NCBI GenBank assembly: GCA_964571635.1
Contig: CAZNCN010000001.1
Span: 37,705 to 101,704 of the forward strand
Length of the DNA stretch: 64,000 bases
Origin: an uncultured Ruminococcus sp.
GTDB taxonomy: Bacteria; Bacillota; Clostridia; Oscillospirales; CAG-382
Direction of reading: 5' to 3'
Notes under the pieces: model-generated
The model's database searches: none
What the model was told of the DNA's origin: nothing
What the model saw: only the letters and a program-made list of their open reading frames with translations
Made by a program: the position numbers and the translations under genes
Shown here: positions 39,772 through 60,171 of the stretch, one piece after another
How positions within the stretch are numbered: position 1 is the first letter of the stretch
Layout of the letters: each line of letters starts with the position of its first letter

Positions 39772-39797
39772 GTTTTTGTCCTCCTGAAAATGTTTTT

Positions 39798-42233
<2,436 letters not shown>

Positions 42234-42250
42234 TTGTGTTTTAAGCCTCC

Positions 42251-43078
42251 TTATTTCAGCACATCATAAACTATGGCGGTCAGGCCGACTGTGATGCAAT
42301 AAACGGTAAATACGCCGAACCGTTTTTTGCCGGCAATGTATTTAAGCAATCCTATCGCCAAAAGTCCGACGAAAAACGCAGTGAGCGAGCCCGCAAGCAA
42401 CGGCAGAATCTCGGCTTTTGTCAGTGTGCCTGTAAAAAGCGACGGCAATTCGAGCACCGCAGCCCCCAAAATTGCAGGGACTGACATCAAAAACGAAAAT
42501 TTCACGGCGTCATCACGCTTTAATCCGCCTGCAATGCCGCCGACTATCGTCGAGCCAGAGCGTGAAATGCCGGGCATTACGGCAAAAAGCTGCAACGCAC
42601 CGATCATCAGCGCGTTCCTGCCCGTGAGCGAGCCTATATCGTGCTCACCCTCCTGCAATTTGTCGCCGATGAAAAGCAATATTCCGTTGATAATGAGCAG
42701 AGCGCCGATCAGCCAGAGCTTTGATCTGATGCTTGCGACATAACCATCGAGGAACGCCGCGGGAATCAGCGGCAGCGATGCTATGCAAAGCATCAAAAAC
42801 AGCTTTTCGTCCGAAGTGAGCGCCTCTTTTATCCTGCCGCAGAACAGCTTTTTTAAAAGCGTGAAAAAGCCCCTTATCACCGAAATGACCTCTGCACTGT
42901 ACACCGCACACACCGCAAGCAGTGTGGCGATATGCAGCATGACGTCAAACGCAGCCGACGCTTCGCCGACATCGCCCAAAAAGGCGTGCAGCAATGCAAG
43001 ATGTCCGCTGCTTGAAATAGGCAGAAATTCTGTTATTCCCTGTAATAATCCGTATAAAATGCTCTCGCCAACAGTCAT
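42251..43078 (-). CDS. uppP: Undecaprenyl-diphosphate phosphatase
   Basis: EFLPISSSGHL and PGISRSGSTI motifs. Start at MTVGES (43078). Confidence 0.9.
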   Translation of the reverse strand: MTVGESILYGLLQGITEFLPISSSGHLALLHAFLGDVGEASAAFDVMLHIATLLAVCAVYSAEVISVIRGFFTLLKKLFCGRIKEALTSDEKLFLMLCIASLPLIPAAFLDGYVASIRSKLWLIGALLIINGILLFIGDKLQEGEHDIGSLTGRNALMIGALQLFAVMPGISRSGSTIVGGIAGGLKRDDAVKFSFLMSVPAILGAAVLELPSLFTGTLTKAEILPLLAGSLTAFFVGLLAIGLLKYIAGKKRFGVFTVYCITVGLTAIVYDVLK

Positions 43079-43115
43079 AATACACCTCGGAAAATAGCGA
43101 ATATCACTTGCCTTA

Positions 43116-43143
43116 GCAAATACCACTCGGTTTGCGCCGAATG
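43116..43143 (-). repeat. Conserved hairpin motif, copy C (in the uppP leader)
   Basis: Minus-strand sequence CATTCGGCGCAAACCGAGTGGTATTTGC. It matches 55486-55512 at 24 of 27 positions plus a 1-nt indel. Confidence 0.7.
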
Positions 43144-43205: not shown

Positions 43206-43234
43206 TTGACAAACTGCAAAACCTGTTGTATAAT
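43206..43234 (+). promoter_or_regulatory. Sigma-A-type promoter for the 43297 gene
   Basis: TTGACA, 17 bp spacer, TATAAT (consensus). Confidence 0.55.
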
Positions 43235-43296: not shown

Positions 43297-44211
43297 ATGC
43301 TTGCTGCTTTAAGAAATTTCACTATATCTTTTTTCGTATGCCTGCTCGTATTCGGCTATGCAGGCTACGCATACATCTGGCCTGCCGTGCATGACATGGT
43401 CGATTTCACCGAAACTTCAAGCGGCGATAACGTTTCGAGTGACGACGTTTCGGGCGGCAGTCACACAGGGCCTGTCGACCTCACCGACGGCAGAACCGTC
43501 ACCGTTCTGTTCATTTGCAAGACTACATCGGGCAAGGTGTGCAACGTCACGCTTGCGAGAGCCAACGAGGGCACAAAGCGGTTTACCTATTGCCGCATAC
43601 CTATTTCGACCAGCACCATCAACAAGGTCGGCGTCAAAGTGCCCATCGACTATTATCTCGAAACCGCAACACTCACCGAGGCCAAAGCAAAGCTTGCTTC
43701 GCTCACAGGCTATAACATCGATCACTGCGTCATCGTCGAACAAAAGGCGGCAAAAGAATTGCTGACAAAGCTTCAAGACCCTTACTTTGATGTTTCGAGA
43801 ACCATAATATATGTCAATCCTGAATATTCAGGCAAAGAATATTCCGAGGGCAACGTGCCCGACGACTATTATATAACCGTCAATGCCTCGCGCTGTGTGC
43901 TTGACGCAGCCATGCTCGATGCCGTGCTCAGCGGCAATATAACCGTTTCGGGCACGTCGACGACCACAATAGCAGGCGATCTCTATGCCTCGCTCTTTGA
44001 GCAGTTCATGAAAAACCCGGGCACAAAGCGCAATACTGCCGCATTGTCCTACCTGCTCAACCACGTCAGGGCAGATATAACAGTCAACGACATCGAAACA
44101 GACAGCGGCATATTCTTTACCTATGACGAATATCCCACCGTGACCAGCGTCACCTATCCGTCAGACTGGGCGACCGCCGTCAAAATGTTCAGAGAAGCAG
44201 ACGGCAGATAA
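43297..44211 (+). CDS. Membrane-anchored extracytoplasmic protein, uncharacterised (possibly a divergent LytR-CpsA-Psr-like fold)
   Basis: 304 aa. N-terminal TM anchor and GGAGAG RBS. The arrangement after the anchor loosely resembles LCP proteins, but the conserved acidic/Arg residues could not be confirmed by eye. Confidence 0.35.
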   Translation: MLAALRNFTISFFVCLLVFGYAGYAYIWPAVHDMVDFTETSSGDNVSSDDVSGGSHTGPVDLTDGRTVTVLFICKTTSGKVCNVTLARANEGTKRFTYCRIPISTSTINKVGVKVPIDYYLETATLTEAKAKLASLTGYNIDHCVIVEQKAAKELLTKLQDPYFDVSRTIIYVNPEYSGKEYSEGNVPDDYYITVNASRCVLDAAMLDAVLSGNITVSGTSTTTIAGDLYASLFEQFMKNPGTKRNTAALSYLLNHVRADITVNDIETDSGIFFTYDEYPTVTSVTYPSDWATAVKMFREADGR

Positions 44212-45632: not shown

Positions 45633-45806
45633 ATGGCATACAAGATCGATAAAGAAAAATGCATAGGCTGCGGTACCTGCGAGAGCGAGTGCCCCGTTTC
45701 TGCAATCAGCGTTGACGCTGACGGCAAGTACGTCATCGACGAGGATGCTTGCGTCGAGTGCGGCGCATGTGCAGGCGTTTGCCCTGTTGATGCTCCCAAC
45801 GCATAA
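45633..45806 (+). CDS. fdx: 2x[4Fe-4S] clostridial-type ferredoxin (57 aa; below the ORF-track length cutoff)
   Basis: Hand translation: MAYKIDKEKCIGCGTCESECPVSAISVDADGKYVIDEDACVECGACAGVCPVDAPNA. Two CxxCxxCxxxCP motifs, with GGAGG 6 nt upstream of the ATG. Confidence 0.85.
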   Translation: MAYKIDKEKCIGCGTCESECPVSAISVDADGKYVIDEDACVECGACAGVCPVDAPNA

Positions 45807-45952
45807 TTGGCATTTAAAAAATCAATCTGTTGGCGCGTCAAGCGCGCTGAGCAAAGTGCGCTCCGCTTTTTAAGCGAGGCGTTTTTTGCTTTTCAGGGCG
45901 ACAAAAGCCCTGTATTTACGACCGATTTCCACACAAAGCGTGAAACATTAAC

Positions 45953-46678
45953 ATGATACATTCAAACAACATCAACGCATCGCTCGTCATAAACGAGCCT
46001 CACGGCGGCATCAGGTTCGGCACGGACGCATTGTTGCTCGCGCACTTTATGCTGCCGTCGGCAGGCAAAAAAGGTCTCGACATCGGCACAGGCTCGGGTG
46101 TGATATCGCTGCTTTATCTGTCGCAAAACTTTTCGTCAACCGTCACAGGCATCGAGATACAAAGCGAATACGCCGAGTGTGCGGCAAAAAACGCTGCTGA
46201 CAACAGTCTTGGTGACAGGTTTTCTGTCGTGTGCGGTGACGTGCGTGAATATAAAAAGCATTTTGTGTGCGGAGAGTTTGATTTTGTTTTTTCAAATCCA
46301 CCTTACCACAAAGCAGGCTCGGGCATAGCAAGCAGCCTTGCCAAGCGTGACGACGCATTCAGAGAGAATCTCTGCACGCTTTGCGACCTCGCTGCAGCCT
46401 CGGCATGGGCGTTAAAAAGCGGCGGCAGGTTTTTTGCGGTATACCGTCCCGAAAGGCTCTCTGAAATGCTGTCACAGCTTACATTTTGTCGCATCGAACC
46501 AAAGAGGCTGACTCTGGTCATGCCCGACTGCGATGCAAAGCCCTCACTGGTGCTGGTCGAGGGCCGCAAGGACGGCAAGCCGGGGCTCGACATCGCGCCA
46601 CCGCTTTATATCTTTAAGGATAGCACTCATACCGACTATTCAGAACGTATGGCTGCCGTTTATGCCGCATTTGATTGA
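45953..46678 (+). CDS. SAM-dependent N6-adenine methyltransferase, tRNA1(Val) m6A37 (TrmN6/YfiC)-like
   Basis: SAM motif LDIGTGSGVISL and catalytic NPPY (FSNPPYH). Size and layout match TrmN6. Confidence 0.6.
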   Translation: MIHSNNINASLVINEPHGGIRFGTDALLLAHFMLPSAGKKGLDIGTGSGVISLLYLSQNFSSTVTGIEIQSEYAECAAKNAADNSLGDRFSVVCGDVREYKKHFVCGEFDFVFSNPPYHKAGSGIASSLAKRDDAFRENLCTLCDLAAASAWALKSGGRFFAVYRPERLSEMLSQLTFCRIEPKRLTLVMPDCDAKPSLVLVEGRKDGKPGLDIAPPLYIFKDSTHTDYSERMAAVYAAFD

Positions 46679-46696: not shown

Positions 46697-49600
46697 ATGA
46701 AACAAAAAAAGCTTTTTGCACTGCTGACCTCGCTGATAATATTGCTTTCGGCGGTCTGCATCGGACTTTCCGACGCAGGCCTTATTTTCGTCTGCCGTGA
46801 CGATATGCCGCAGGGCGAGATGATAATTGCACTCAGCAAAGCTCCGGGCGAAAAGTTGCTCTCTCAATACGGCTTATCTTTGCTTGGCGGCGACATATAT
46901 GTTGCAAGCAGGGCAGATGCATTGAGATTAAAAGCCGAGCATGGCGATCTTGTCAGATATGTCGAGGACAACACAGAGCGCAAAGCCGCAATAAACGAAG
47001 CTATGCCAGACCCCGCCGAAAAGCCATATGAATACCCCATGCTCGAATTGCAAAAGGCGCACGAGCTCACCAAGGGCGACAAAGACACTGTCATCGCCGT
47101 GCTCGATACAGGTGTAAAAAAGAGCGACATATCATTGTCGGGTGCTCATATTCTGGACGGCTATGACACGTCATCGGGCACTGCCGTCGTTTCTGACGCG
47201 ACAGGACACGGCACAAAGATATGCTCGCTGATATACGCGGTCGCTCCCGACTGCACGATAATGCCCGTCAAGGTATCGCGCGGCTCTTCGACAATATACA
47301 CATCAGATCTCATCAAAGGCTTGCATTACGCCGCAGACAACGGTGCAAAGATAATCAACCTGTCATTCGGCGGCTATAACTATTCATACGCCGAGCAGGA
47401 GGCTGTCGATTATTGCGTTTCAAAGGGCTGCATTCTGATAGCCGCCGTCGGCAACGACGGCATGACGGCGCTTGCCGACCAGCCGAATTATCCCGCGTGC
47501 TATGAGGGCGTGATAGGTGTCGGCTCGATAGGCAAGGACTGGCAGGAGAGCGAGTTTTCACAGAGCATGGGCGCTGATATTTTTGCACCCGGCGAAATGA
47601 TAACATTAAAGACAGACGACGGCGTTTCTGCCGAAAACGGCACGTCATATTCAGCGGCGTTTGTTTCGGGCACGGCAGCACTTTGTGCATCGATATGCAG
47701 AGAATGCAGGTTCGAGACAGGCGAATATGAGTTTTTGATCACGCTTTGCGGCACACAGTCGCCGAGCACGCTCAAAATGACAGAGGCATCGCTTTATCCC
47801 GCAGTGACAGGCGTAAGCGACAAGGCAGAATACGCAAACGAAGTATATATTTATTTTAATCGGGGCACAGCGTATCTTGACGGCGAAGAGATCGACGACG
47901 GCGAAAGAGTGTTTATCAGAGGACAGCACACGCTCGTCGTTTCGCACCTCGGGCGCAGTGTGACTGTTTCTTTTTCGATAACCTCGTCCGGCCCCGAATA
48001 TACAAAACGCTCACAGGACGGTGCTGTGGTCATTTTGTTTGAAAGCGGCGACGCCTATCTTGACGGCGTGCCTTATGCTGCGGGTCAGCCGATAACCGCA
48101 GAGGGCGAGCATTATTTTGAGATAACGGCAGGCGGAGTGACCTTGAGCGAAACGTTTTTGCTCGAGGGCGAATGTGCGGTGTTCGGCGCTTCGGACAACG
48201 CAAACTATCAAACACCGATAGCTATATATCTCACCAAAGAAGCAATGCTTGACGGCACAGCCGTCAGCGGCGAAATATTTGTCGGCGAGGGCGAGCACGT
48301 CCTGATGATCGGCGAAAGAGAAATAAATTTTTATGTCGGCGACAAAAGAGAGGTCTATTCCCCTCTCGGCGGCAGTACGGCAGTCGGCGGCGGTGACAGA
48401 ATAGCCGTATTCAAAAAAGGTGTCGCAGGCATAACGCTGTTCGACATTCACGATCTGTCAAAGGCGGCTTTGTTTATTTCGACCTCAGAGCCTGTCACAG
48501 ACTGCACGATCATCGATCAAGACGTTGTGACTCTCATGCAGACGCAGATAGCTGTTTTTGATGCTGTAAGCGGCAATATTATCTCGACACACAGCATATC
48601 CGAGCAGTGTCTTGCCGTAAACCATATAGGCGAAAGAATATACTATATCTCGCAAAACACGCTTTTTACGATTCAGGACGGTGTCGAAGCGGCGCTCTGC
48701 ACAAGTGATGCGAAATTTGACAGTCTGTCGTGCTCCGAAGGCAGCATCGCACTTTACGACAGCATGTCGGACGACGGAAAGATAACGCTTTATAACACAG
48801 ACACCTCGACAGCATCGGTGCTGTCTGTCGACGCCTCGCAGCTCGGTAAAAAAATATTGCTTGATGAAACAAGGCTCATCTGCGGCAGGCATGTTTTTGA
48901 CCTGCAAAAAGGCGAATTGCTGCTCGAAACAGATGTCGGCGACGTCATATGCATATCAAACGGTGCGTATATTTGCAAAAAAGGCGCTGCCGACCTTGCC
49001 ACAGGCGCTGTGCTTTGCAAATACGACAGCGAAGCACTTTTTGCGTTCGACACTGCCGAAAAGTTGGTGATAGCGTTTGCCGACAAGACCGTCACAGAAT
49101 CGGCATCGGATATATTCGGTTACGGCGGCTATGCTGTCTGCGATACCTTTGTGCCAAGAAAAGAAGGCGTTCTGTTTAAAAACGATATAACCTCTGTCTG
49201 CAATTTCGGCAGCGGAATGCTCTTGACTGCCGAGGGCGACAGGAATGTTTATTATTATGACGGAAACCAAGTGACAGTCTTTGAAGTCCTGCCTTTTGTG
49301 CCGGACAAGGTGTTTGCCGACGGCGAAAAGGTCTTTTTGACCTTCAAAAACAAAAAACTTTTGATGCTTGTCGAAAATGACGGGCTTACAAGCATCACAG
49401 TCCCCTCGCCTGTCGAAGCGATGGCGTTCTGTGATGGCAGAGTATTTATGCTCATAAGCGGCACACTTGCGGAATTGCAGGCCGACAAAACAATTCTGTC
49501 TTATCCGCTCGTATCCGCCACGGCGATAGCTGCGACAGACGGCAGGCTCATAACCGCCAGCAGGCGCAATATAAATGTGTTTGGCATCGCCGACATGACG

Positions 49601-51793
49601 ATGATGTATTCGCTAAAATGCCGTGACAACGCATATTCGATAGTCGTTTCGCAGTCGCTCGCCGCAGCAGGCGGAACGGTCTTTGATATAGCAAGCGGCA
49701 CTGTGCTCGTCGGCATAAGCGGCGACGCAAAGGCATTCGCAAACGATTATTTATTCGCTTCGGGCGGAATATTCAACGCTCAAGGCGAAGCGCTCGTGTC
49801 TGTCTCGCACTTTGGTCTTTCGGCATCAAAGGCACTTGTTGTCGGAGGCGACCTTGTTGCCGTATACGGCAGCGCATTGCAAAAGCATGATATATCGGCG
49901 CTTTATCTGCCGGAGCTCGTATCGGGGATAACAGACGGCGGCATATACAAAATAAGCGCAAGCCTAACTGTAAACGCAGGGCTTGCGTATCTCAACGGCA
50001 AACAGATAACAGACACGGCAACCGTCTCTGACGGTGGCATTCACACGCTGAGGGTCGTTCTTTCGCCCGGAATAACTCTAAAATATTCTTTCAGCGTTGT
50101 TCCGGAGCTTGGCGAAATAGTCTTTTCGCAGCCCGAGCTCTCGATAGGTGTCGGCGAAACATGCGTTTTAAAGCTGCTGTTTTTGCCGTTCGGAGCAGAA
50201 AGCAGTGAGCTTATATTCGTGTCGAGTGACGAAAATGTGCTGACTGTCGACACGCACGGAACAGTCACGGCAGTTTCGCCGGGCGATGCGACAGTCACGG
50301 CTTATACGTCAAACCGCACACTGTCAGCAGTATGCAATATAAGGGTGCTCGAAGACCCCATAAGATTTTCATCCGAGTCGGGCATACTGGTCGACAGACC
50401 ATATTCCACCGCATATCACATTCCGCTCGGCACGACAGTCGACGAAATACTGCTTGCGGCAGGCTCGCACCCCGAAATGCGCATACTCGGCACCGACGGT
50501 GTTTATGTCACAGAGGGCATTGTCGCCACCGGAATGCGCATAGAACTTTATCACGACGGCATTCTGCACGATGCGATGACGCTTTCTGTCGTCGGCGACA
50601 CCGACGGCGACGGATATTCTACGGTGCTTGACCTGCTGATGATCTCTGATATTAATTCGGGAATGCTTTCTCCCACAGCGGAGGTCGAATACGCTGCCGA
50701 TGTCAATATGGACGGCAAGGTATCGGGCTCAGACCTGCTGCGCATACGCGGACAATTGCTGTTCAAGCACAGGCTGTACGGCGATTCCACGCCGCCTGTG
50801 ACGGCAGACACCGATGTTATGCTCACCGCCTCAAGGCACGGCGATACTGTTGATGTGCTTATCAGCATAAACGGAATCACCCCCGACTACCTCACGGGCA
50901 GGCTGATCTTCGACGGAACAAAGCTTGTTATGGCAGACCTGACGGCGCCGTTTGCTTCGGTCGAGCACACGCAGGCCGACAGCTATCTCTCGTTTATCAT
51001 AAAGCTTGACAAAACGGCAAAGAACGATCTGCTGGTCGCAAGGTTCAAGGTTGTCGAGGATGCGGAAATAAGCCTTGATAGCATTTCTGTTGCTATAGGC
51101 AAAAGCGTATTTTCGGCAGATACCTCGGGCAAGACCTGCAAAACAGCCGCAAGACAAGATGGCATCGAGGTCGCAAACGCATTGCGTGCCATTGACTTTG
51201 ACGAAAGAGTGCTTGAATACAACGTCACCCTGCCCACAGGCAGCATTATGGCGATGGTTTCTGCACCGAGCAATGCTGCAGTGTCAGAAACTCTCGTGGC
51301 TGACAGGCAGAAATTCGACATAACCGTCAGGATGGACGGCAGGCAATATATCCTGCACTGCTTTGTTGCCGACAAGACAGTGCCCGACTCAAACAGCCGC
51401 ATCGGCGAGATCAAAGTCGACGGTGCAAGGCTCGTGCCGAATTTCAAGCCCGACATACACGAGTATATGCTGGTTTCGGATTCCGACAAAATGCCGCTGC
51501 CCATCATCACCGCACAAAGCAAGTATGCCACCGTCAAGACTGACATCGTTGACGGTGTTATAACCATTGTCTGTACAGCAGAGGACGGCTCGCAGACTGT
51601 CTATACAGTCACATTAGATGCAAAGCTTGACGACACAAGCTCAGAAACGCCCTCGCCCGACAGCGACTCATCAGAGCCGCCGACAACGGACGTCAACAGG
51701 CTGAATGTCATATTGCTCGAGGTTGCCATAGCCGTTCTCACGCTCGCAGCCACGGCGGCAGCGATAATATCGGCAAAGAAAAAGCACCGATAG
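46697..51793 (+). CDS. Giant (1698 aa) membrane-anchored multidomain subtilase (S8) with beta-propeller-like repeats, Big_2, dockerin, cohesin-like and cadherin-like modules
   Basis: Signal peptide and I9-like propeptide. Subtilase residues D137 (AVLDTGV), H171 (ATGHGT), N252 (AAVGNDG), S317 (GTSYSAAFVSG). 3+1 copies of a repeat of about 50 aa containing AYLDG/AMLDG/AYLNG. About 14 degenerate 35-45-aa repeats (aa 550-1075). Big_2-like VTAVSPGDATVTAY. Dockerin loops GDTDGDGYSTVLDLL and ADVNMDGKVSGSDLLRIRGQLL. S/P/D-rich linker, C-terminal TM helix and KKKHR. Confidence 0.7.
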   Translation: MKQKKLFALLTSLIILLSAVCIGLSDAGLIFVCRDDMPQGEMIIALSKAPGEKLLSQYGLSLLGGDIYVASRADALRLKAEHGDLVRYVEDNTERKAAINEAMPDPAEKPYEYPMLELQKAHELTKGDKDTVIAVLDTGVKKSDISLSGAHILDGYDTSSGTAVVSDATGHGTKICSLIYAVAPDCTIMPVKVSRGSSTIYTSDLIKGLHYAADNGAKIINLSFGGYNYSYAEQEAVDYCVSKGCILIAAVGNDGMTALADQPNYPACYEGVIGVGSIGKDWQESEFSQSMGADIFAPGEMITLKTDDGVSAENGTSYSAAFVSGTAALCASICRECRFETGEYEFLITLCGTQSPSTLKMTEASLYPAVTGVSDKAEYANEVYIYFNRGTAYLDGEEIDDGERVFIRGQHTLVVSHLGRSVTVSFSITSSGPEYTKRSQDGAVVILFESGDAYLDGVPYAAGQPITAEGEHYFEITAGGVTLSETFLLEGECAVFGASDNANYQTPIAIYLTKEAMLDGTAVSGEIFVGEGEHVLMIGEREINFYVGDKREVYSPLGGSTAVGGGDRIAVFKKGVAGITLFDIHDLSKAALFISTSEPVTDCTIIDQDVVTLMQTQIAVFDAVSGNIISTHSISEQCLAVNHIGERIYYISQNTLFTIQDGVEAALCTSDAKFDSLSCSEGSIALYDSMSDDGKITLYNTDTSTASVLSVDASQLGKKILLDETRLICGRHVFDLQKGELLLETDVGDVICISNGAYICKKGAADLATGAVLCKYDSEALFAFDTAEKLVIAFADKTVTESASDIFGYGGYAVCDTFVPRKEGVLFKNDITSVCNFGSGMLLTAEGDRNVYYYDGNQVTVFEVLPFVPDKVFADGEKVFLTFKNKKLLMLVENDGLTSITVPSPVEAMAFCDGRVFMLISGTLAELQADKTILSYPLVSATAIAATDGRLITASRRNINVFGIADMTMMYSLKCRDNAYSIVVSQSLAAAGGTVFDIASGTVLVGISGDAKAFANDYLFASGGIFNAQGEALVSVSHFGLSASKALVVGGDLVAVYGSALQKHDISALYLPELVSGITDGGIYKISASLTVNAGLAYLNGKQITDTATVSDGGIHTLRVVLSPGITLKYSFSVVPELGEIVFSQPELSIGVGETCVLKLLFLPFGAESSELIFVSSDENVLTVDTHGTVTAVSPGDATVTAYTSNRTLSAVCNIRVLEDPIRFSSESGILVDRPYSTAYHIPLGTTVDEILLAAGSHPEMRILGTDGVYVTEGIVATGMRIELYHDGILHDAMTLSVVGDTDGDGYSTVLDLLMISDINSGMLSPTAEVEYAADVNMDGKVSGSDLLRIRGQLLFKHRLYGDSTPPVTADTDVMLTASRHGDTVDVLISINGITPDYLTGRLIFDGTKLVMADLTAPFASVEHTQADSYLSFIIKLDKTAKNDLLVARFKVVEDAEISLDSISVAIGKSVFSADTSGKTCKTAARQDGIEVANALRAIDFDERVLEYNVTLPTGSIMAMVSAPSNAAVSETLVADRQKFDITVRMDGRQYILHCFVADKTVPDSNSRIGEIKVDGARLVPNFKPDIHEYMLVSDSDKMPLPIITAQSKYATVKTDIVDGVITIVCTAEDGSQTVYTVTLDAKLDDTSSETPSPDSDSSEPPTTDVNRLNVILLEVAIAVLTLAATAAAIISAKKKHR

Positions 51794-51804
51794 CAGATAA
51801 TCAA

Positions 51805-51840
51805 AAAGGTCTTTTGCAAACGCAAAAGACCTTTATTGTT
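51805..51840. terminator. Bidirectional rho-independent terminator
   Basis: AAAGGTCTTTTGC-AAAC-GCAAAAGACCTTT followed by ATTGTT, with an A-run on the left. Lies between convergent genes. Confidence 0.7.
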
Positions 51841-51867: not shown

Positions 51868-52767
51868 TCAGACCTTTTTCTTTTTCCAATACAGTTCTTC
51901 ATCGACAGGCTCGTTGGCAGGCTTCTCAAGCTCTGCGGGATGCTCGAGCATATACTTAAACAGTGCTATGCTCTTGCTGTAATAATATCCGTCCGCCAAT
52001 CGCTCGTCGATCGTGAAGCCAAGGTCGACACTGTTTTTCATCTCAAACGTGCCGTCGGGGTTGTAGAATGGTCTGAATTTCTTTTCACCGATAGTGATGA
52101 ACACAGAGTTTGTACCCCAATTGGTGAGATGGTGATAGCCGCTCTGCAATCTTATCGAGCCAAGATTGGTGAGCACGACCGAGGAATAATATGGATCGGT
52201 GGCGATGAGTGACGACGGAACCTTGCCGTGAATGTCAAGCCTTGTGATGCACCAGACGAGGAATTTTGAGAAAAACCTCGGCATACGGTTGAACATATCC
52301 ATATCCTCACTCGATTTGTCTATCTTGCCGCTGCGGCAGGAATGCACCTGGCGATATATGTCACCGTGTACAAACTCGAGATCGCAGTCATCCTTGGCGT
52401 GTATGAATGCAAGCCCCTCGTGCGACTCATCCCGGAACACCTTTTTGATAACAAATGATGCCGTGATCTCGTTGCGCTGATATGTGTTTTTGTTTGCAAT
52501 AAAGCGGTTCATCTTGGGTCTTAACGTGATAGTCTTGATGATCGCAGTGACGATAAGATGAAACAGCGTGTATTTAAACTCGGGGTCAGACGCATTTTTT
52601 GCCTGCAGATATTCGTCCGCCGCAGTGAGATCTATGCGCTGGCTGATAAATGCCTCGTTGTCACAGCGGTTGGGATAAAGCAGCGGCGTGATAAAATGCA
52701 TTCCGTCAAGGTCACGCAGCAAAACGCCGTCCTTGCGATCTCCAAACCTGCGCTTTTGTTTGCTCAT
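51868..52767 (-). CDS. 2-oxoacid dehydrogenase E2 / CAT-fold acyltransferase-like protein (stand-alone catalytic-domain homolog, active-site His replaced)
   Basis: 299 aa. The C-terminal block [31 protein letters not shown] aligns by eye with the E2 motif DHRxxDG...F...L..P..L, but reads DER. No lipoyl or subunit-binding domains. Confidence 0.45.
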
Positions 52768-54512: not shown

Positions 54513-55481
54513 ATGTTTGATATTTTTGATATAAGCAAAAGCACAATGATCACGAGCGCAAGCGGCACTGTCAAAAAGCGCGGAATATTTATGCAGATAG
54601 TCATATTCTTCTGCGTAATGATGGTCGCGTCGACGATAGTTTCGGCAATAACGCTGTTGCCGACTATGCTCTGGATGCTGCTTGACGGCAGCTTTAAGGA
54701 GCTTTTGAAAGAGTCACTCGAAACAGGTGTGCTCGACATGAGTGCGATACTTGCCACTATGCCGGAATGGCTCACTGTCGTTTCACTGGTCGCAACGGCA
54801 GGCGAAATAATTGCACCGATGCTCTATTGCAGGCTGCTCGAGCGCCGCTCGTTCGCCTCGATGGGCTTTACACGCAAAAAGGCAGTGTCGACGTATCTCG
54901 TCGGCTATCTCGTCGGAGCTGTCATGATAACCGCTGCGGCGGCAATCTGCGTGCTGATGGGTGCGATAGACATCAAGATAGCTTCTGTCATTCCCGTCGG
55001 AATGATAATCATATTTTTTGTCGCATATCTCATACAGGGACTCGCCGAAGAAACGCTGCTGCGCGGATATCTGATGACGTCGATCGCCGCCTCGTCGACC
55101 TCTCGCTATGCTGTTGCACTCGCTGTCGGCATAAACTCGGTGCTGTTCTCGCTGCTGCACCTCGGCAACGCAGGCATATCCGGACTTTCGCTGCTCAACA
55201 TAGCGTTGGCGGGAATATTCTTTAGCCTTTACGTCCTTCACACCGACAACATCTGGGGTGCTGCGGCAGCACATTCTGCGTGGAATTTCGTGCAAGGGCC
55301 GATACTCGGCATACAGGTCAGCGGAACAGTCACTAAAAGCACCGTGTTTGTTTCGACCGCCAGAGACGGAATGGCATGGCTGAGCGGCGGAGATTTTGGG
55401 CTCGAGGGCGGAATGGCAGTAACGATCGTACTGCTCGTCGCAATACTTTTGATAAGCATAAAGAAGCCGAAGAAGGTATAA
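54513..55481 (+). CDS. CPBP family intramembrane glutamic endopeptidase (CAAX protease/Abi family)
   Basis: Motif 1 EExxxR (LAEETLLRGY), motif 2 FxxxH (FSLLHL), motif 3 HxxxN (HSAWNF). Polytopic. Confidence 0.8.
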   Translation: MFDIFDISKSTMITSASGTVKKRGIFMQIVIFFCVMMVASTIVSAITLLPTMLWMLLDGSFKELLKESLETGVLDMSAILATMPEWLTVVSLVATAGEIIAPMLYCRLLERRSFASMGFTRKKAVSTYLVGYLVGAVMITAAAAICVLMGAIDIKIASVIPVGMIIIFFVAYLIQGLAEETLLRGYLMTSIAASSTSRYAVALAVGINSVLFSLLHLGNAGISGLSLLNIALAGIFFSLYVLHTDNIWGAAAAHSAWNFVQGPILGIQVSGTVTKSTVFVSTARDGMAWLSGGDFGLEGGMAVTIVLLVAILLISIKKPKKV

Positions 55482-55570: not shown

Positions 55571-55636
55571 GTCATACTCTCCCCCCTCTCTGCATAATGA
55601 TGCATATAACCTGTGCACAAAGGGAGAGGATACACA

Positions 55637-57127
55637 TTGAAAAGAATGTCGCCTATCAAGGGTGCGGCGGTGATGACGGTTTTTTCACTGATATGCAAGC
55701 TGATCGGAACTCTGCAGCGGCTTTATACCGCATCACGGATAGGCAGCGAGGGCATGGGGCTTTATTCGCTGATAATGAGCGTATACACGCTTTTTACCGC
55801 AATATCCAACAGTTGGATAACTCCTGCGGTCAGCAGGCTTGCGGCAAAGCATTATGCAAAGGATGAGAAAAGCGGCTATATGATGTTTCTTTCATGCGTA
55901 TTGCCGTCACTGGTTATCGGGCTTATTTCTATGCTGGCAATGTATCTGCTTGCAGAACCGCTTGCCGCAAACGCCATAAACGACATAAACACCTGTGCGG
56001 CACTGCGTGCGCTGTCGCTTTCGTTGCCCTGCATGTCGCTGACGTCGTGCATCAAGGGGCTGTTTCTCGCAAAAGGCGAGATACTCAAAAACAGCACCGG
56101 CTCGCTCACAGAGCAGATAATAAAAACCCTGATGACCATGCTGATCTTGGGCAGGTATATGCTTTTTGAATCCTCGCCCGCTCGGCTTTGCCTCGGCATC
56201 ACCATCGGAGTGACGAGCGGCGAAATGTTCTCTCTTTTATATCTCGGCACGCTTTTGCTGCTGTCAAAGAGTGAACGAAAGCGAATATCTCCGAGTATGC
56301 CGATGATAAGCGAGCTTTTGTCTGTCGGAGCGCCGATGCTCGCCTCGACCTCGGCAACATCCCTGCTTCACACAGCAGAAAGCGTGCTGATACCGATGAT
56401 GCTGCTGAAATATTCGGGCGACAGGTCGCAGGCACTGTGCCAATTCGGCGAGATACGCGGAATGGCGATGCCGCTGATATTCTTTCCGTTTGCGTTCCTC
56501 GGCGGGCTCTCGGTGGTGCTGGTTCCCGAAATATCGCGGCTCTCTGCATCCGACGACAAAAATGCATTGGCAAAGCAGATATCCAAAAGCCTGACGATAG
56601 CATATCTTTTTGGAATAATGACGACGGGCATATTCTTTTTTCTTTCAGAAAGCGCCACGAACGTGTTTTACCCACACTCAAACGCCGCATTTTCAGTCAA
56701 AATAATTGCGCTGATAGCGATGCCGATGTATGTCGAAACAGTCGCCGACAGCATGTTGAAGGCGCTCGGTCAAGAAAAGCGGCAATTGCTGTATTGCCTC
56801 ATCAATTCTGCGTTTCGCATAACCGCCTTGCTCGCCGTTGTTCCAAGGCTCGGCATATACGGCTACCTTGGCATACTCATCGTGTCAAACATACTGCAAT
56901 ATATTCTTGCGATCAATCGGCTGCATAAGGTCGTCCGCTATCGAATAGTATATACAAAAGCGATCGCACTGCCGTTTGTCGGCTCGGCGGTCGGCGGCAT
57001 CGCTGCATCGAGCTTGCAGAGCCTCCTCTTACCGAGCGAAGCGGCAAAGCTCATTGCCTCATGCTTTGTGTTTGCGATATTCTTTTTGCCGTTCTGCATA
57101 CCGATTCTGAAAGAGGTGAAAAAATGA
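55637..57127 (+). CDS. spoVB: Stage V sporulation protein B-like MOP-superfamily flippase (SpoVB/MurJ-like)
   Basis: About 14 TM segments. The N-terminus KG..V....SLICKLIGTLQRLYTASRIGSEGMGLY parallels the B. subtilis SpoVB N-terminus. Probable TTG start at 55637, 7-8 nt after GGAGAGG. The stop overlaps the spoIIIAA start (ATGA). Confidence 0.65.
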   Translation: MKRMSPIKGAAVMTVFSLICKLIGTLQRLYTASRIGSEGMGLYSLIMSVYTLFTAISNSWITPAVSRLAAKHYAKDEKSGYMMFLSCVLPSLVIGLISMLAMYLLAEPLAANAINDINTCAALRALSLSLPCMSLTSCIKGLFLAKGEILKNSTGSLTEQIIKTLMTMLILGRYMLFESSPARLCLGITIGVTSGEMFSLLYLGTLLLLSKSERKRISPSMPMISELLSVGAPMLASTSATSLLHTAESVLIPMMLLKYSGDRSQALCQFGEIRGMAMPLIFFPFAFLGGLSVVLVPEISRLSASDDKNALAKQISKSLTIAYLFGIMTTGIFFFLSESATNVFYPHSNAAFSVKIIALIAMPMYVETVADSMLKALGQEKRQLLYCLINSAFRITALLAVVPRLGIYGYLGILIVSNILQYILAINRLHKVVRYRIVYTKAIALPFVGSAVGGIAASSLQSLLLPSEAAKLIASCFVFAIFFLPFCIPILKEVKK

Positions 57128-58017
57128 GCAGCCATATCAGAATGCTTTCATATCTGCCGACAGGCGTGAGAGAGGCATTTATCTCAATGAAAAAAGAAAC
57201 GCTCTATTCTGTCGACGAGATTCGCCTGCGCCGCGGCTCTGCACTCGCCGTTGTTTCAAACGGCAAAAACAGATTTGTTTCTGTCTTTGGTGAGCTGTGC
57301 GAGCTCGGCAATGCCTTGGTCGTCGACGAAAAAATGCTTGCGGAGTGCATAAGGCTGCTCACAAACGCCTCACGGTATGCGCTCGACGATGCGATAGCGA
57401 GCGGATACATTCCACTCGGTGGAATGCGTGCGGGCGTTTGCGGCAGAGCTGTGACAAAAAACGGTTCGGTGCAGACCGTCGCCGAGATAACAGGCATTGC
57501 ACTGCGCATAACAAGGCGAGTGGATAAATTCGCCATGCCGCTTTATGAAAAATATAAAATTGACGGACTTGCGGGTGCGCTGGTCATTTCGCCGCCGTCG
57601 GGCGGCAAAACGACGTTTTTGAGATCGCTTATATATCTGCTTTGCAGATCACACCGTGTCGCCGTCTGCGACAGTCGGGGCGAGCTTATATGTGAAGGGC
57701 TCGAGAAATTGCCTGTCGATTTCATGTCGTTTTGCCCAAAATCATATGCCATCGAGGCGCTTACACGCACTATGACTCCCGAAATAATTATATGCGACGA
57801 GCTGGGTTCGGGTGAGGAGCAATGCATCATGCAAAACGCCTCGTGCGGTGTGCCTATTGCCGCCTCTGTACACGCCGCCTCTGCCTTTGAAGCGATGCGG
57901 CGACCGTTTGTAAAGCACCTGTGCGAAGCAGGAATATTTAAATATGCGGTCGAGCTTGCTGCGAAAGACGATGCCCACAGCGTAAGCATCAGCGAAATAT
58001 CGGGGTATCTGCCGTGA
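57124..58017 (+). CDS. spoIIIAA: Stage III sporulation protein AA (ATPase)
   Basis: EIRLRRGSALAV pattern, Walker A SPPSGGKTTFLRS, Walker B-like IIICDELG. First gene of a complete spoIIIA operon. Confidence 0.85.
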   Translation: MSSHIRMLSYLPTGVREAFISMKKETLYSVDEIRLRRGSALAVVSNGKNRFVSVFGELCELGNALVVDEKMLAECIRLLTNASRYALDDAIASGYIPLGGMRAGVCGRAVTKNGSVQTVAEITGIALRITRRVDKFAMPLYEKYKIDGLAGALVISPPSGGKTTFLRSLIYLLCRSHRVAVCDSRGELICEGLEKLPVDFMSFCPKSYAIEALTRTMTPEIIICDELGSGEEQCIMQNASCGVPIAASVHAASAFEAMRRPFVKHLCEAGIFKYAVELAAKDDAHSVSISEISGYLP

Positions 58018-58490
58018 AAGTGCTCGGTGCTTTGGCGGTGGCGATATGCTGCTATCTTGCAGGCTGTTCATTCTCGGCAAGGCAAAAAGCATCATGCGCT
58101 AACCTGCGAGGAATGATAAGGCTGCTGACACACATGCAGAGCCGTATCAAAAACAGTGCCATGCCGCTTGCCGAGATATTTGCCACATTCAGCGATGATG
58201 CGCTCGAAAGCAGCGGATTTCTGCCCGAATTGCGTCTGCACGGTGCGGCGGGCTTTGCAAACGCACTGTCGATAATCGACCTGCCGCCTGATTGCTCTGA
58301 TGCGCTCGAAATATTCGGCGGAACGCTCGGTACTCTTTGCGCCGACGATCAGCTTTCAGAGCTCACGCTCGTGCTTGACGAGATGACAGAGCATTATGAC
58401 AGAGCGGTCAAGGCACTGCCCGCAAAGCAAAAGATAACACGCACGGTCTGGGGGCTGGCAGGTGCGCTCATAGCGATCATGCTGATATAA
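58014..58490 (+). CDS. spoIIIAB: Stage III sporulation protein AB
   Basis: 158 aa. N-terminal TM and operon position. GTG start overlapping the spoIIIAA stop (GTGA). Confidence 0.75.
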   Translation: MKVLGALAVAICCYLAGCSFSARQKASCANLRGMIRLLTHMQSRIKNSAMPLAEIFATFSDDALESSGFLPELRLHGAAGFANALSIIDLPPDCSDALEIFGGTLGTLCADDQLSELTLVLDEMTEHYDRAVKALPAKQKITRTVWGLAGALIAIMLI

Positions 58491-58511
58491 AAATCTTTTT
58501 TGGTGAATGCA

Positions 58512-58706
58512 ATGAACATAGCGATGGTTTTAAAAATAGTCGGTGTCGGCATCATCGTCGGCGTCGCCTGCCAATTATTGCAAAAAAGCGGGCGTGACGA
58601 GCAGGCGACACTCGTCACGGTCGCAGGCATCGTAATAGTTATGCTGCTGCTGTCAAAAGAGATCGGCACGCTTTTCAGTTCGATCAGAGCGGTGTTTGGG
58701 CTATGA
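58512..58706 (+). CDS. spoIIIAC: Stage III sporulation protein AC
   Basis: About 64 aa with two TM helices. IAMVLKIVGVGIIVGVACQLLQKSGRDEQA resembles the SpoIIIAC core. Alternative TTG/GTG starts at 58500 and 58503. Confidence 0.8.
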   Translation: MNIAMVLKIVGVGIIVGVACQLLQKSGRDEQATLVTVAGIVIVMLLLSKEIGTLFSSIRAVFGL

Positions 58707-59083
58707 GTATTTTCGCCGTCTGCGGAGCGGCAATCGTTTTTTGCTGTGGCGGCATGATACTGCGTGCGATCAAGCCCGAGCTCTCGCCCGCCTACACGGC
58801 GGTATCGGTCTGCATACTGACCTGCTGCTGTATAAATGCGGTCTCGCCGCTGATAACAGAGCTTGTTTCTCTGGCAAGCGCAAGCGGCATCGGCAATTGG
58901 ATAAGCCCCTTGCTCAAGGCGATAGCCGCCTCGATAGGCTGCGAGACCGCCGCCGACCTTTGCAAAGACTGCGGCGAAAGCTCGATGGCGTCAAAAATAG
59001 AATTCATGTGCCGCATATACATCCTGCTGCTTTCGCTGCCGCTGATAAAGCAGGTCATAGATGTGACGAGGGGACTTTTGTGA
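58703..59083 (+). CDS. spoIIIAD: Stage III sporulation protein AD
   Basis: 126 aa, polytopic. ATGA overlap with spoIIIAC. Operon position. Confidence 0.8.
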   Translation: MSIFAVCGAAIVFCCGGMILRAIKPELSPAYTAVSVCILTCCCINAVSPLITELVSLASASGIGNWISPLLKAIAASIGCETAADLCKDCGESSMASKIEFMCRIYILLLSLPLIKQVIDVTRGLL

Positions 59084-60171
59084 TGAGAACGCTTTTTAAG
59101 CTGCTGATGCTTGTCATAGCAGCGGCATTTATATTCGCCCTGCCTGTCGATGCCAAAGCCGACGAAATTTCGTCACCCGATCTTGGCGACCTTGCAGACA
59201 ACGAGCTTATCACAGATGCCGAAGCCGACGGAACAGAGTCTATAAACATAGCAGACAAGCTCATCGAAAGCCTTTCAAGCAGCATATCCTCGGCACTCAA
59301 AAGCACCTTGCCGTCGTTTGCGTCGATTTTGGCGGTGCTGACGCTTTCGGGACTGCTGGCGGCGTTCGTCGACGGCAAAAGCGAGCAGATAAATGCGGCT
59401 TACTCGTTTCTGTCGATACTTGCGCTCGGGCTTATTGTTTATCCGCAATGCACGATGCTCATGAATTATGTTTCAAAATGCGCAGACCTGCTGTCAAGGG
59501 TCTCGGTATCTGTTGCGGCAGGCTGTACGACGCTTTATATACTCGACGGCTGTGCATCTGCCGCCGCAGTCAATGCCGCTTCAATGTCATTGCTGGGCAC
59601 TGCGCTCGAAGTGATCGCCTCGGGAGCGCTCATGCCTTTCATGCATTCTGCACTTGCGTTGTCGATGGCAGGTGCATTGCCCGGCGTGGCAGACCTGTCA
59701 CCTGTTTCGAGGTTTATAAAAAACACTATAACGACAGTCATGGCATTTATTTTTACAATATACGGCTTTGCAAACTATGTTCAGACCGCAATAGCAACGG
59801 CGGCGGACGGATATGCGTATCGCACGATAAGATTTTCGGCAGGCGTAATGATACCCGTCATCGGCAATATGCTGGGCGAAGCCTCTCGAACAGTCAGCGG
59901 AAGCATAGCAGTCATGCGCGCGACAGTCGGCTCGGCAGGCATCGCTGCGGTGATTGCCACGCTTTTGCCGCCTATAATAACGGTTTTATGCTATCGCTTA
60001 GTGCTTTCACTCTCGGCTGTTGCGGCAGGTCTGCTCGGCTGCGAGCGTGAAAGACGCTTTTTGTCAGACCTCTCGGGAATGATAAGCGTGCTTTTTGCGC
60101 TCGTTTCGGGTGTCGCACTGACCGCCGTGATAACGCTTGCGATGTTTATCAGAATGGGAAATCAGGGATGA
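59083..60171 (+). CDS. spoIIIAE: Stage III sporulation protein AE
   Basis: Start at the ATG 59083 (TGATG overlap with spoIIIAD). Signal peptide MRTLFKLLMLVIAAAFIFALPVDA, then a polytopic membrane domain. The 129-codon upstream extension in the ORF track overlaps AC/AD and is rejected. Confidence 0.8.
   Translation: MRTLFKLLMLVIAAAFIFALPVDAKADEISSPDLGDLADNELITDAEADGTESINIADKLIESLSSSISSALKSTLPSFASILAVLTLSGLLAAFVDGKSEQINAAYSFLSILALGLIVYPQCTMLMNYVSKCADLLSRVSVSVAAGCTTLYILDGCASAAAVNAASMSLLGTALEVIASGALMPFMHSALALSMAGALPGVADLSPVSRFIKNTITTVMAFIFTIYGFANYVQTAIATAADGYAYRTIRFSAGVMIPVIGNMLGEASRTVSGSIAVMRATVGSAGIAAVIATLLPPIITVLCYRLVLSLSAVAAGLLGCERERRFLSDLSGMISVLFALVSGVALTAVITLAMFIRMGNQG

Follow-up and report, generated by a model that had tools for sequence, protein, structure and literature searches.

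A membrane-anchored subtilase of uncultured Clostridia that looks like a dockerin-bearing protease fused to its cohesin anchor

We describe a 1698-residue protein from the 64-kb stretch of DNA analysed here (the window) and propose that it is an active subtilisin-type protease carried on a membrane-anchored stalk, in which a cognate dockerin and cohesin have been fused from a two-gene system. To this reading we give a probability of roughly 0.55. Cohesin-dockerin pairs are best known from cellulosome assembly, and to our knowledge their roles outside cellulosomes are poorly understood. The architecture itself is shared by a family; what appears to be new is the fusion of protease and anchor, seen when the family's sequences are set against distant relatives in which the two are split.

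Results

Domain architecture of the protease

The protease ORF was judged to be real, with a product of 1698 residues. Its features are as follows.

46697-51793, + strand: protease ORF, 1698 codons, with the ATG at 46697 and the stop at 51791-51793
46697..46777, + strand: signal peptide, residues 1-27 (KQKK, a hydrophobic run, then SDA/G), read from the sequence by eye
46778..47023, + strand: N-terminal pro-region, residues 28-109, possibly I9-like (family profile against the PDB)
47024..47791, + strand: subtilisin-type S8 catalytic domain, residues 110-365, with D137, H171, N253 and S317
47798..48337, + strand: three tandem Ig-like (BiPBP_C-like) repeats of ~60 aa, residues 368-547 (cross-HMM matches)
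48350..49102, + strand: beta-propeller 1, about residues 552-802, seven four-stranded blades (AF2, Foldseek)
49148..49891, + strand: beta-propeller 2, about residues 818-1065, seven blades (AF2, Foldseek, HMM cross-matches)
49919..50113, + strand: fourth Ig-like (BiPBP_C-like) repeat, residues 1075-1139 (Ig1, Ig3 and Ig4 HMM matches of 5e-9 to 7e-18)
50117..50347, + strand: Big_2 domain, residues 1141-1217
50351..50584, + strand: small alpha/beta module, residues 1219-1296 (AF2 pLDDT >90)
50594..50764, + strand: type-I-like dockerin, residues 1300-1356, with two intact Ca2+ loops
50810..51187, + strand: cohesin module, residues 1372-1497
51188..51391, + strand: beta-sandwich, residues 1498-1565, confidently modelled by AF2 and possibly a divergent cadherin-like domain
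51392..51625, + strand: cadherin-like beta-sandwich of the PF12733 type, residues 1566-1643
51626..51700, + strand: acidic, S/P/D/T-rich disordered linker, residues 1644-1668 (AF2 pLDDT <50; length highly variable in the family)
51701..51793, + strand: C-terminal TM helix (residues 1669-1693), KKKHR tail and stop

Much of this order had been read from the letters alone in a first-pass annotation, which named a signal peptide, an I9-like propeptide, a complete S8 triad, three Ig-like repeats and a fourth, about 14 degenerate units taken as one or two propellers, Big_2, a small domain, a dockerin, a cohesin-like module, two cadherin-like repeats and an S/P/D-rich linker ahead of a TM helix and KKKHR. 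These assignments stood, with reservations over the propeptide and the first cadherin-like repeat.

The signal peptide shows the appropriate N-terminal features together with a conserved family consensus (MxKR...LLLLPAV). A lipoprotein signal was considered and rejected: there is no lipobox, the nearest candidate, 'SAVC', has V at -1, and the Cys is absent from the family consensus. For the pro-region the I9 assignment is tentative: the two best PDB matches of the family profile are to POIA1 (1itp, 1v5i_B), the founder of I9, and are weak (E = 0.05-0.08), and Pfam finds no I9 (PF05922) in either the window protein or any of 26 homologues. Peptidase_S8 (PF00082) matches residues 129-330 with 101.3 bits against a gathering cutoff of 21.8. 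The domain aligns from about residue 110 onwards with residues 5-235 of mature subtilisin Carlsberg, and D137, H171, N253 and S317 correspond to D32, H64, N155 and S221 of that enzyme. The triad (D137, H171, S317) and the oxyanion residue N253 are invariant in 74 homologues; the core is compact, and its highest PDB similarity is to classical subtilisins and thermitase. Judged on its sequence, the S8 domain appears catalytically complete and is predicted to be active.

The four ~60-aa repeats (residues 368-429, 432-491, 494-547 and 1075-1139) are mutually homologous, with cross-HMM E values down to 1e-11. Their profile found no relative among PDB sequences, and they are provisionally called Ig-like because they are homologous to the BiPBP_C (PF06832)-annotated repeats of an SLH protein (P0077), BiPBP_C being an Ig-like sandwich. 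An AF2 model of the ~552-1065 region (a 545-aa fragment; pLDDT 88.9, pTM 0.80) contains 57 strands, and with Foldseek it resolves the degenerate units into two propellers, the count of 7+7 four-stranded blades being our own grouping of the AF2 strand list. The top Foldseek matches are tandem 7+7 WD40 proteins (Utp21, Aip1, COPI beta-prime and Apaf-1; E ~1e-17), and the two halves are homologous, each matching the other's HMM at ~1e-10. No WD40 family in Pfam matches the window protein or the 26 homologues, and the likeness to WD40 proteins in the model is one of fold only. The propellers are the fastest-evolving part of the protein (16% identity against 46% for S8), which fits a diversifying binding surface and a loosely constrained spacer equally well.

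Big_2 is matched by Pfam at residues 1143-1211 (E = 1.4e-9). The small module that follows gave no family match and no detectable similarity to established X modules. It is spaced 23-24 residues from the dockerin in 73 of 74 members and is kept together with the dockerin in the relative P0178, described below; by analogy, the two may form an X-module-like dyad. The dockerin itself scores 29.6 bits against Dockerin_1 (PF00404; cutoff 22.9) over residues 1300-1355; the model also matches all 26 homologues, and the family profile matches many solved dockerins. Its two loops (DxDxDG...D) comprise D1301, D1303, D1305 and D1312, and D1335, N1337, D1339 and D1346, with D1301, D1305, D1312, D1335 and D1346 invariant across the 74 homologues.

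The cohesin gave no direct Pfam match (PF00963) in the window protein. PF00963 does match the aligned region in 4/26 homologues (best 1.1e-6), the family profile matches the C. perfringens NagJ cohesin over the full domain (E = 3e-3), and the AF2 model (pLDDT ~90) is assigned by Foldseek to more than 20 solved cohesins with a probability of 1.0 and TM scores of 0.5-0.7. The model thereby predicts a nine-stranded jelly-roll cohesin fold for residues 1372-1497, at 19% identity across the family one of its least conserved modules. The second cadherin-like repeat is a probable assignment: PF12733 matches 21/26 homologues (E cut 0.01), with the window copy sub-threshold at 17.4 against 24.2 bits, and its family profile matches the cadherin-like domain of PDB 8q2h at 3.8e-8. 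The first is without Pfam recognition and shows weak cross-matches to the second. A 441-aa C-terminal fragment containing five modules was modelled by AF2 with pLDDT 89.9 and pTM 0.76. The linker is disordered in AF2, and 74/74 homologues end in a hydrophobic helix with K/R after it.

A conserved family with near-invariant module spacing

The first-pass annotation did not recognise the architecture as that of a described protein. Our literature searches likewise found nothing relevant to it, but it is no one-off: MAGs of uncultured Oscillospiraceae-type and other Clostridia contain around 75 full-length orthologues, which group into about 50 clusters when cut at 50% identity. Annotated merely as 'S8 family serine peptidase', they define a conserved family. 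These sequences suggest that Oscillospiraceae-like bacteria have a cell-envelope protease of a conserved, widespread and unstudied type. The hosts appear to be gut-associated, to judge by MAG isolate names. Members in uncultured Ruminococcus sp., Oscillospiraceae, Eubacteriales and Faecousia MAGs (L001, L002, L004, L005 and L058) were also recovered by scanning genome contigs with S8-core peptide patterns, a scan that was swamped by unrelated subtilases and gave no census of the family. The Pfam scan of homologues covered 26 sequences; counts of invariance, identity and spacing covered 74.

Every member retains an intact, conserved dockerin and cohesin. In 59/74 members these two modules are spaced by 59 +/- 1 residues, and the linker between them, of ~15 residues, is conserved in length and modelled with pLDDT 77-89. 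From propeller to fourth Ig-like repeat the distance is 38 residues in 71/74, and the tail preceding the TM helix ranges from 48 to 89 residues across the family.

Split two-gene relatives

More distant relatives combine S8 with Ig repeats, propellers and LRR. Their protease stops after the dockerin, and a signal peptide, cohesin, cadherin-like region and TM helix are encoded by the gene that follows. One of these, P0178 (2269 aa), aligns with window residues 77-730 and 1226-1360 and ends there. The gene 18 nt 3' of it encodes a signal peptide, a cohesin, a cadherin-like domain, an S/A-rich linker, a TM helix and VKR, and this anchor protein is matched by the window-family HMMs for cohesin (2.4e-7) and cadherin-like domain (4.8e-24). 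P0167 has a like arrangement, with a downstream 503-aa protein made up of a signal peptide, cohesin, two cadherin-like domains and a TM helix. The stand-alone cohesin and cadherin-like proteins constitute a separate family. A further relative, P0177, carries CW_binding_2 repeats in place of the anchor, indicating that the C-terminal end of the protease superfamily is an interchangeable surface-anchoring position. Those split relatives that were found belong to other lineages, such as Saccharofermentanales.

In light of the adjacent anchor gene in the split relatives, the window protein looks, by sequence comparison, like a dockerin-bearing protease fused to its own cohesin membrane anchor, through an event that could have been fusion or fission. 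The first-pass annotation had suggested that the dockerin-cohesin pair could build higher-order surface assemblies; the split systems point away from this, and the pair is most simply explained as a protease-to-anchor connection that has become covalent in the window family.

A candidate natural split within the family itself was rejected: P0074 has 1417 aa, and a cadherin-like ORF of 336 aa comes after it, with synteny kept. The junction shows a +1 frameshift in the linker between dockerin and cohesin, and the downstream ORF begins inside the cohesin with no signal peptide; we treat the case as an assembly error or a pseudogene.

Genomic context

The protease gene is flanked by the following features.

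45633..45806, + strand: ferredoxin gene, 57 aa, 2x[4Fe-4S], a kept upstream neighbour of the protease gene
45841-45862: terminator-like hairpin 3' of the ferredoxin gene
45953..46678, + strand: class-I SAM methyltransferase gene, 241 aa, MTS-type with an NPPY motif (Pfam MTS, 3.3e-13)
51805-51834, both strands: terminator-like hairpin with a 13-bp stem, common to the protease gene and the convergent gene at 51868-52767

The gene start is as first described: by coordinates, the protease ATG lies 18 nt past the methyltransferase stop, and no Shine-Dalgarno-like purine run was found 5' of it. The 'strong' terminator proposed at the other end is a real hairpin, but its T-run is interrupted and the adjective is somewhat generous. 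The methyltransferase, weakly TrmN-like (NCBIfam TrmN, 65.8 bits against a cutoff of 350), is encoded directly 5' of the protease both here and in five related loci read, and the two genes are probably co-transcribed. A Fer4 gene, 67-77% identical, occupies the matching position at loci L081, L083, L084, L085 and L089; among the orthologues, the protease gene is always found 3' of a ferredoxin gene and a methyltransferase gene.

Across loci the block FtsK-BacA-hyp-Cys/Met-PLP-Fer4-MTS-S8 is kept, with identities of 26-30% for the protease and 42-77% for its neighbours, a syntenic pattern suggesting that the protease gene is a vertically inherited chromosomal gene. Functional coupling with the upstream methyltransferase was considered and set aside: synteny extends over the entire housekeeping-like block, which has at least six genes, so the adjacency of these two genes alone is no evidence of coupling. 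Window neighbours comprise FtsK, BacA, a PLP enzyme, ferredoxin, the methyltransferase and oxidoreductases, and Rfam gave no match anywhere in the window.

Discussion

The signal peptide, the complete S8 domain, the universal TM helix with its positive tail and the surface-anchoring modules of relatives all strongly favor the cell-surface protease that was first suggested, and enable us to propose a model for its organization. The host would be one of the spore-forming Clostridia, with the subtilisin-type endopeptidase active outside the cytoplasmic membrane. The signal peptide would export the chain, and the C-terminal helix with KKKHR would anchor the protease as a type I membrane protein, leaving the acidic disordered linker as the sole flexible joint. 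From the membrane outward, models and conserved spacings predict a long and largely rigid stalk of cadherin-like sandwiches, cohesin, dockerin with small module, Big_2 and an Ig-like repeat, continuing through the double seven-bladed propeller and three Ig-like repeats to the S8 domain at the tip. We consider the stalk largely rigid because of the pTM values of its two modelled fragments (0.80 and 0.76), the linker pLDDT of 77-89 and the near-invariant spacings between modules.

Comparative genomics suggests that the third of the protein comprising cohesin, cadherin-like domains, linker and TM helix is the counterpart of the stand-alone anchor. In the split relatives, the protease with its small-module-dockerin dyad is presumably tethered non-covalently by dockerin-cohesin binding. 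Since the protease and anchor genes are one in the window family, its dockerin and cohesin most likely belong together as cognate partners in a fixed arrangement, probably intramolecular, that would stiffen the base of the stalk. The weakest steps of the model concern function: the protease may cleave proteins outside the cell or on its surface, either to acquire peptides or to process surface or host proteins, and the fast-evolving double propeller may act as a platform for binding substrate or ligand, in line with the first-pass suggestion that propeller and adhesin modules might choose the target.

More tentatively, and with odds that we put somewhat below even, the dockerin and cohesin of one chain may form an obligatory, Ca2+-dependent intramolecular complex, a natural single-chain clasp arising from the two-gene fusion and serving, at the foot of the ~1300-residue stalk, as a joint that is mechanically stable or can be switched. 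The pTM, the linker confidence and the spacing of the modules are what suggest such a contact. The ~15-residue linker may be too short to reach the canonical 8-3-6-5 face of a cohesin.

A short linker of this kind could disfavor binding within a chain and favor domain-swapped binding between chains. In the principal alternative the dockerin binds the cohesin of a neighbour, or both modules recruit other dockerin- or cohesin-bearing partners, so that protease oligomers or a mixed surface complex would form, a protease 'scaffoldin'. The retention of both modules in every member and the existence of relatives whose free C-terminal dockerin needs a cohesin partner are in keeping with assembly in trans. 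However, each split-system protease has its own adjacent anchor gene, implying 1:1 pairing, and AF2 places dockerin and cohesin in a single confident rigid body with no partner present. The search for partner proteins that had been suggested at the outset, made within the 64-kb window, found no further cohesin or dockerin ORF, and the split relatives, with their free dockerins, belong to other lineages. On balance we regard assembly in trans as unlikely, at about one chance in four.

It is also conceivable, if improbable, that dockerin and cohesin bind nothing and persist as stalk spacers in a long, tethered nutritional protease resembling the lactococcal cell-envelope proteinases. The low identity of the cohesin and the covalent linkage, which would make binding dispensable, agree with such a relic, but the invariant Ca2+-loop residues of the dockerin and the strictly kept spacing and module order amount to more constraint than a spacer needs. 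A dedicated processing protease of the mycosin kind, cleaving specific secreted substrates for secretion or surface assembly instead of bulk protein, seems very improbable. The top NCBIfam model is indeed the T7SS mycosin (TIGR03921), mycosins share the combination of S8 with a C-terminal TM anchor, and the gene is conserved as one chromosomal copy among housekeeping neighbours. The score of 135.1 bits, however, is under half of the 278.75-bit cutoff, the nearest PDB structures are the classical subtilisins and thermitase, no T7SS or other secretion genes adjoin the protease in any locus read, and ~1300 residues of extra modules have no mycosin counterpart.

The fused protease-anchor that we favor has a close parallel in cellulosome anchoring, where an X-module-dockerin dyad binds the cohesin of a cell-bound scaffoldin (C. 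thermocellum CipA XDoc-SdbA; R. flavefaciens XDoc-ScaE). Alike are the dockerin with a fixed companion module, paired to a cohesin on a cell-anchored protein, and the separate, adjacent protease and anchor genes of the split relatives. In contrast, the window family carries a subtilase as cargo, is anchored by a C-terminal TM helix and not by SLH or sortase, and has its dockerin and cohesin ~15 residues apart on one chain; the cohesin is single, and no CAZyme or CBM domains were found in the window protein or its relatives. The nearest solved cohesins are those of C. perfringens NagJ, NagH and NanJ (PDB 2ozn, 2jh2, 2vo8 and 2w1n; best profile match as given above for NagJ, TM ~0.7, rmsd 2.8-2.9 A), glycosidase toxins in which cohesin-dockerin pairs likewise join non-cellulolytic enzymes. 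Their pairs link separate secreted glycosidases; the window family instead has a protease as its enzyme, a cohesin that is part of a membrane anchor, and a dockerin-cohesin pair fused into one chain.

The Gram-positive cell-envelope proteinases lactocepin PrtP and streptococcal C5a peptidase ScpA resemble the window protein as large multi-domain S8 proteins with a signal peptide and pro-region, N-terminal catalysis, a beta-sandwich stalk and a C-terminal anchor, and the window protein presumably operates as they do. They differ in that the window S8 core is compact and subtilisin/thermitase-like, with two propellers and a dockerin-cohesin pair in the stalk; no PA-domain insertion, Fn3, A/B domains or LPXTG were detected in the window protein. 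The best PDB match of the dockerin profile (E = 3e-13) is to 8x3a and 8x39, tandem dockerins named 'Serine protease' by their depositors, so dockerins on serine proteases have already been studied structurally. The deposited fragment, unlike the window protein, is a double dockerin of 151-152 aa with no cohesin, propeller or TM anchor in the chain, and a literature search for a paper on the 8x3a protease found nothing relevant.

Together, the fused family and its split relatives would provide a clean comparative case in which a cohesin-dockerin pair hangs a subtilase on the membrane of non-cellulolytic, uncultured Clostridia, and suggest that such a pair can turn into a single chain. If the fused modules still bind one another, they would constitute a natural single-chain cohesin-dockerin unit, of interest to protein engineers and for single-molecule mechanics. 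For the bacteria themselves, the fast-evolving double propeller is a likely determinant of specificity, and host or dietary proteins are candidates for what it may bring to the protease.

A catalytically complete, membrane-anchored subtilase

The window protein is a catalytically complete subtilase that is exported and held in the membrane as a type I protein. Its reading frame is as the first-pass annotation described it, with 1698 codons running from ATG 46697 to a stop at 51791-51793, a start 18 nt after the end of a 241-aa methyltransferase gene, and no Shine-Dalgarno-like sequence ahead of the ATG. No competing overlapping ORF occurs at 46697-51793 on either strand, and a hairpin at 51805-51834 (13-bp stem) lies 3' of the ORF and is common to the convergent downstream gene. 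Three modules, and no others, are matched directly by Pfam.

Direct Pfam matches on the window protein
Residues 129-330: Peptidase_S8
Residues 1143-1211: Big_2
Residues 1300-1355: Dockerin_1

The remaining module assignments were drawn from homologues and structure prediction. Residues D137, H171, N253, and S317 are invariant across the family alignment, and the S8 core is of the classical subtilisin type, aligning with residues 5-235 of mature subtilisin Carlsberg and with thermitase. The module chain proposed at first pass stands in its order and folds, with two reservations: the supposed I9 propeptide has no Pfam match in the pro-region, where the top PDB matches are to the I9 protein POIA1 and are weak (E about 0.05), and the first "cadherin-like" repeat forms a beta-sandwich in the model without being recognized by Pfam.

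HMMs built from the family alignment identify residues 368-429, 432-491, 494-547, and 1075-1139 as four copies of one Ig-like repeat. Tandem copies of this repeat are also found in an SLH-domain protein, where they carry the Pfam label BiPBP_C (an Ig-like sandwich), and no solved structure related to the repeat by sequence was detected among PDB sequences. The AF2 model of residues 548-1092 (pLDDT 88.9, pTM 0.80) is all-beta, and its 57 strands, in our own grouping, form two predicted sets of seven four-stranded blades, in agreement with the earlier estimate of about 14 units in one or two propellers. Foldseek ranked tandem 7+7 WD40 proteins of eukaryotes highest against it (E about 1e-17); the likeness is one of fold only, as neither the window protein nor the 26 members scanned with Pfam carry a WD40 sequence signature.

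The model of residues 1215-1655 (pLDDT 89.9, pTM 0.76) places in order a small alpha/beta module, a three-helix dockerin, a cohesin sandwich, and two more beta-sandwiches, with the chain disordered from about residue 1644. More than 20 solved cohesins were matched to the cohesin model by Foldseek, the closest being the non-cellulosomal C. perfringens structures 2jh2, 2vo8, and 2w1n (TM about 0.7); the cohesins nearest to it are those of the C. perfringens toxin-complex type. Against PDB sequences the family profile gave strong dockerin matches, the NagJ cohesin over its full domain (E = 3e-3), and the cadherin-like domain of 8q2h (E = 3.8e-8). A C-terminal hydrophobic helix followed by K/R is present in 74/74 homologues.

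A conserved family

The first-pass annotation did not recognize the architecture as a described one. Our literature search likewise found no paper describing the family or a fused dockerin-cohesin pair, and database names are generic, but the protein is not unique: about 75 full-length relatives (1640-1870 aa) were retrieved, with identities of 99, 85, 49, 43, and 34%, then about 28%, at coverage above 90%. The whole architecture is conserved, since the alignment is nearly free of gaps. Among the 26 Pfam-scanned members S8 and dockerin were each found in 26, cadherin-like domains in 21, Big_2 in 14, and cohesin in four. Named full-length carriers are MAGs assigned to uncultured Ruminococcus sp., Oscillospiraceae bacterium, Eubacteriales bacterium, Clostridia bacterium, and Faecousia sp. 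When a propeller-region profile was scored against 1.84 billion cluster representatives, 51 proteins passed E <= 1e-30, nearly all of 1640-1900 aa with the propellers at the same position. Identity to distant members falls from 46% in S8 and 43% in the first Ig-like repeat to 33% in the dockerin, 19% in the cohesin, and 16% in the propellers.

Split relatives and the proposed origin by fusion

Weaker matches to the propeller profile are proteins of 2000-2500 aa that share the N-terminal pro-region, S8 domain, BiPBP_C-like repeats, and propellers and differ in their C-terminal parts. One such relative, P0178, aligns with window residues 77-730 and again with 1226-1360, the small module and dockerin, which form its last residues. 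At 18 nt further 3' begins the gene for a 339-aa protein with a signal peptide, cohesin, cadherin-like domain, S/A-rich linker, TM helix, and basic tail, matched by the family HMMs for cohesin (2.4e-7) and cadherin-like domain (4.8e-24). A second relative, P0167, has the same arrangement, with a 503-aa signal peptide-cohesin-2x cadherin-like-TM protein encoded downstream, and stand-alone cohesin plus cadherin-like proteins constitute a family of their own. By sequence, therefore, split-gene relatives exist, and the window family would correspond to a "protease-dockerin" fused in frame to a "cohesin-cadherin-like-TM anchor" whose signal peptide has been removed.

At L086 (12828-13847) and L088 (12136-13647), stand-alone signal peptide-cohesin-cadherin-like-TM proteins directly follow giant S8-propeller-LRR-dockerin proteases; these pairs resemble a two-gene system for protease display in other Clostridia (Saccharofermentanales MAG). 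The 2532-aa relative P0177 (L090 4001-11599) carries S8, LRR, Big_2, and CW_binding_2 repeats and ends in the latter in place of a dockerin or TM helix; in it the same protease cassette is anchored by cell-wall-binding repeats. Together with the split relatives, it indicates that the C-terminal end is an exchangeable surface-anchoring position in this protease superfamily. An apparent two-gene form inside the window family, P0074 (L089 5980-6160; ORFs of 1417 and 336 aa), was rejected: the linker between dockerin and cohesin carries a +1 frameshift, the second ORF starts inside the cohesin without a signal peptide, and the split is an assembly error or pseudogene.

Genomic neighborhood

Features around the protease gene
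36379-39771 (-): GH20 beta-hexosaminidase adjoining a 596-aa beta-lactamase/PBP-like protein
39798-42233: FtsK
42251-43126: BacA/UppP
43206-43234: promoter-like site, perfect TTGACA-17-TATAAT consensus, ahead of the next gene
43297-44211 (+): 304-aa protein with an N-terminal TM helix
45633-45806 (+): 57-aa two-cluster ferredoxin, between the PLP enzyme and methyltransferase genes
45841-45862: terminator-like hairpin, 3' of the ferredoxin gene
51868-52767 (-): convergent 299-aa ORF
54513-55481: Rce1-like CAAX protease, upstream of the spoIIIA genes
55613-57127: polysaccharide-biosynthesis flippase-like gene, upstream of the spoIIIA genes
57061-60171 (+): includes spoIIIAA-like and spoIIIAE-like genes

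We read four loci whose proteases share 26-30% identity with the window copy. The ferredoxin and methyltransferase genes precede the protease gene in all four, with an Mntp gene inserted in one, and at L081 the block reaches FtsK, BacA, a hypothetical membrane protein, and the Cys/Met PLP enzyme, just as it does in the window; downstream genes show no conservation among these loci. Neighbors are 42-77% identical within the same block, which marks the protease gene as a vertically inherited chromosomal gene with fast-evolving non-catalytic parts. The ferredoxin, not mentioned at first pass, is the best-conserved neighbor (67-77% in all related loci), and because of the hairpin behind its gene the methyltransferase and protease may form a separate transcription unit.

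The 36379-43126 neighborhood is cell-envelope-related. The 304-aa protein keeps its position in related loci at only about 25% identity, has no Pfam or NCBIfam match, and by eye faintly resembles LytR/CpsA/Psr-type proteins. Similarity of the 299-aa ORF to the 2-oxoacid dehydrogenase acyltransferase catalytic domain is confined to the C-terminal part of that domain (E = 1.5e-7), and NCBIfam gives no match. The spoIIIA genes mark the host as an endospore-former.

Discussion

We propose that the dockerin and cohesin of the window protein are a cognate pair, probably held in a fixed arrangement across a putative interface. Three observations suggest this arrangement: the five-module model reaches a pTM of 0.76, the linker has a pLDDT of 77-89, and the dockerin-to-cohesin spacing is near-constant (59 +/- 1 residues in 59/74 members), unlike the pre-TM tail, which varies from 48 to 89 residues. 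The acidic pre-TM linker would then be the sole flexible element, with the protease at the distal tip and the double propeller beneath it as a probable ligand or substrate platform. That the modules instead serve assembly in trans, or recruit other dockerin proteins, we regard as rather unlikely. It is less probable still that the pair is a non-binding structural relic, as the dockerin Ca2+ ligands are invariant, and a mycosin-like dedicated processing role seems very improbable for a protein that scores 135 bits on the mycosin model against a cutoff of 279.

The window protein would work like the Gram-positive cell-envelope proteinases, although it lacks their defining PA insert and LPXTG, and it draws on the cellulosome toolkit for modules but contains nothing carbohydrate-active. 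Judged from other cell-envelope subtilases, its default role may be extracellular proteolysis for peptide supply, or the processing of surface or host proteins. The new insight lies in the putative fusion relationship between this protein and two-gene protease/anchor systems.
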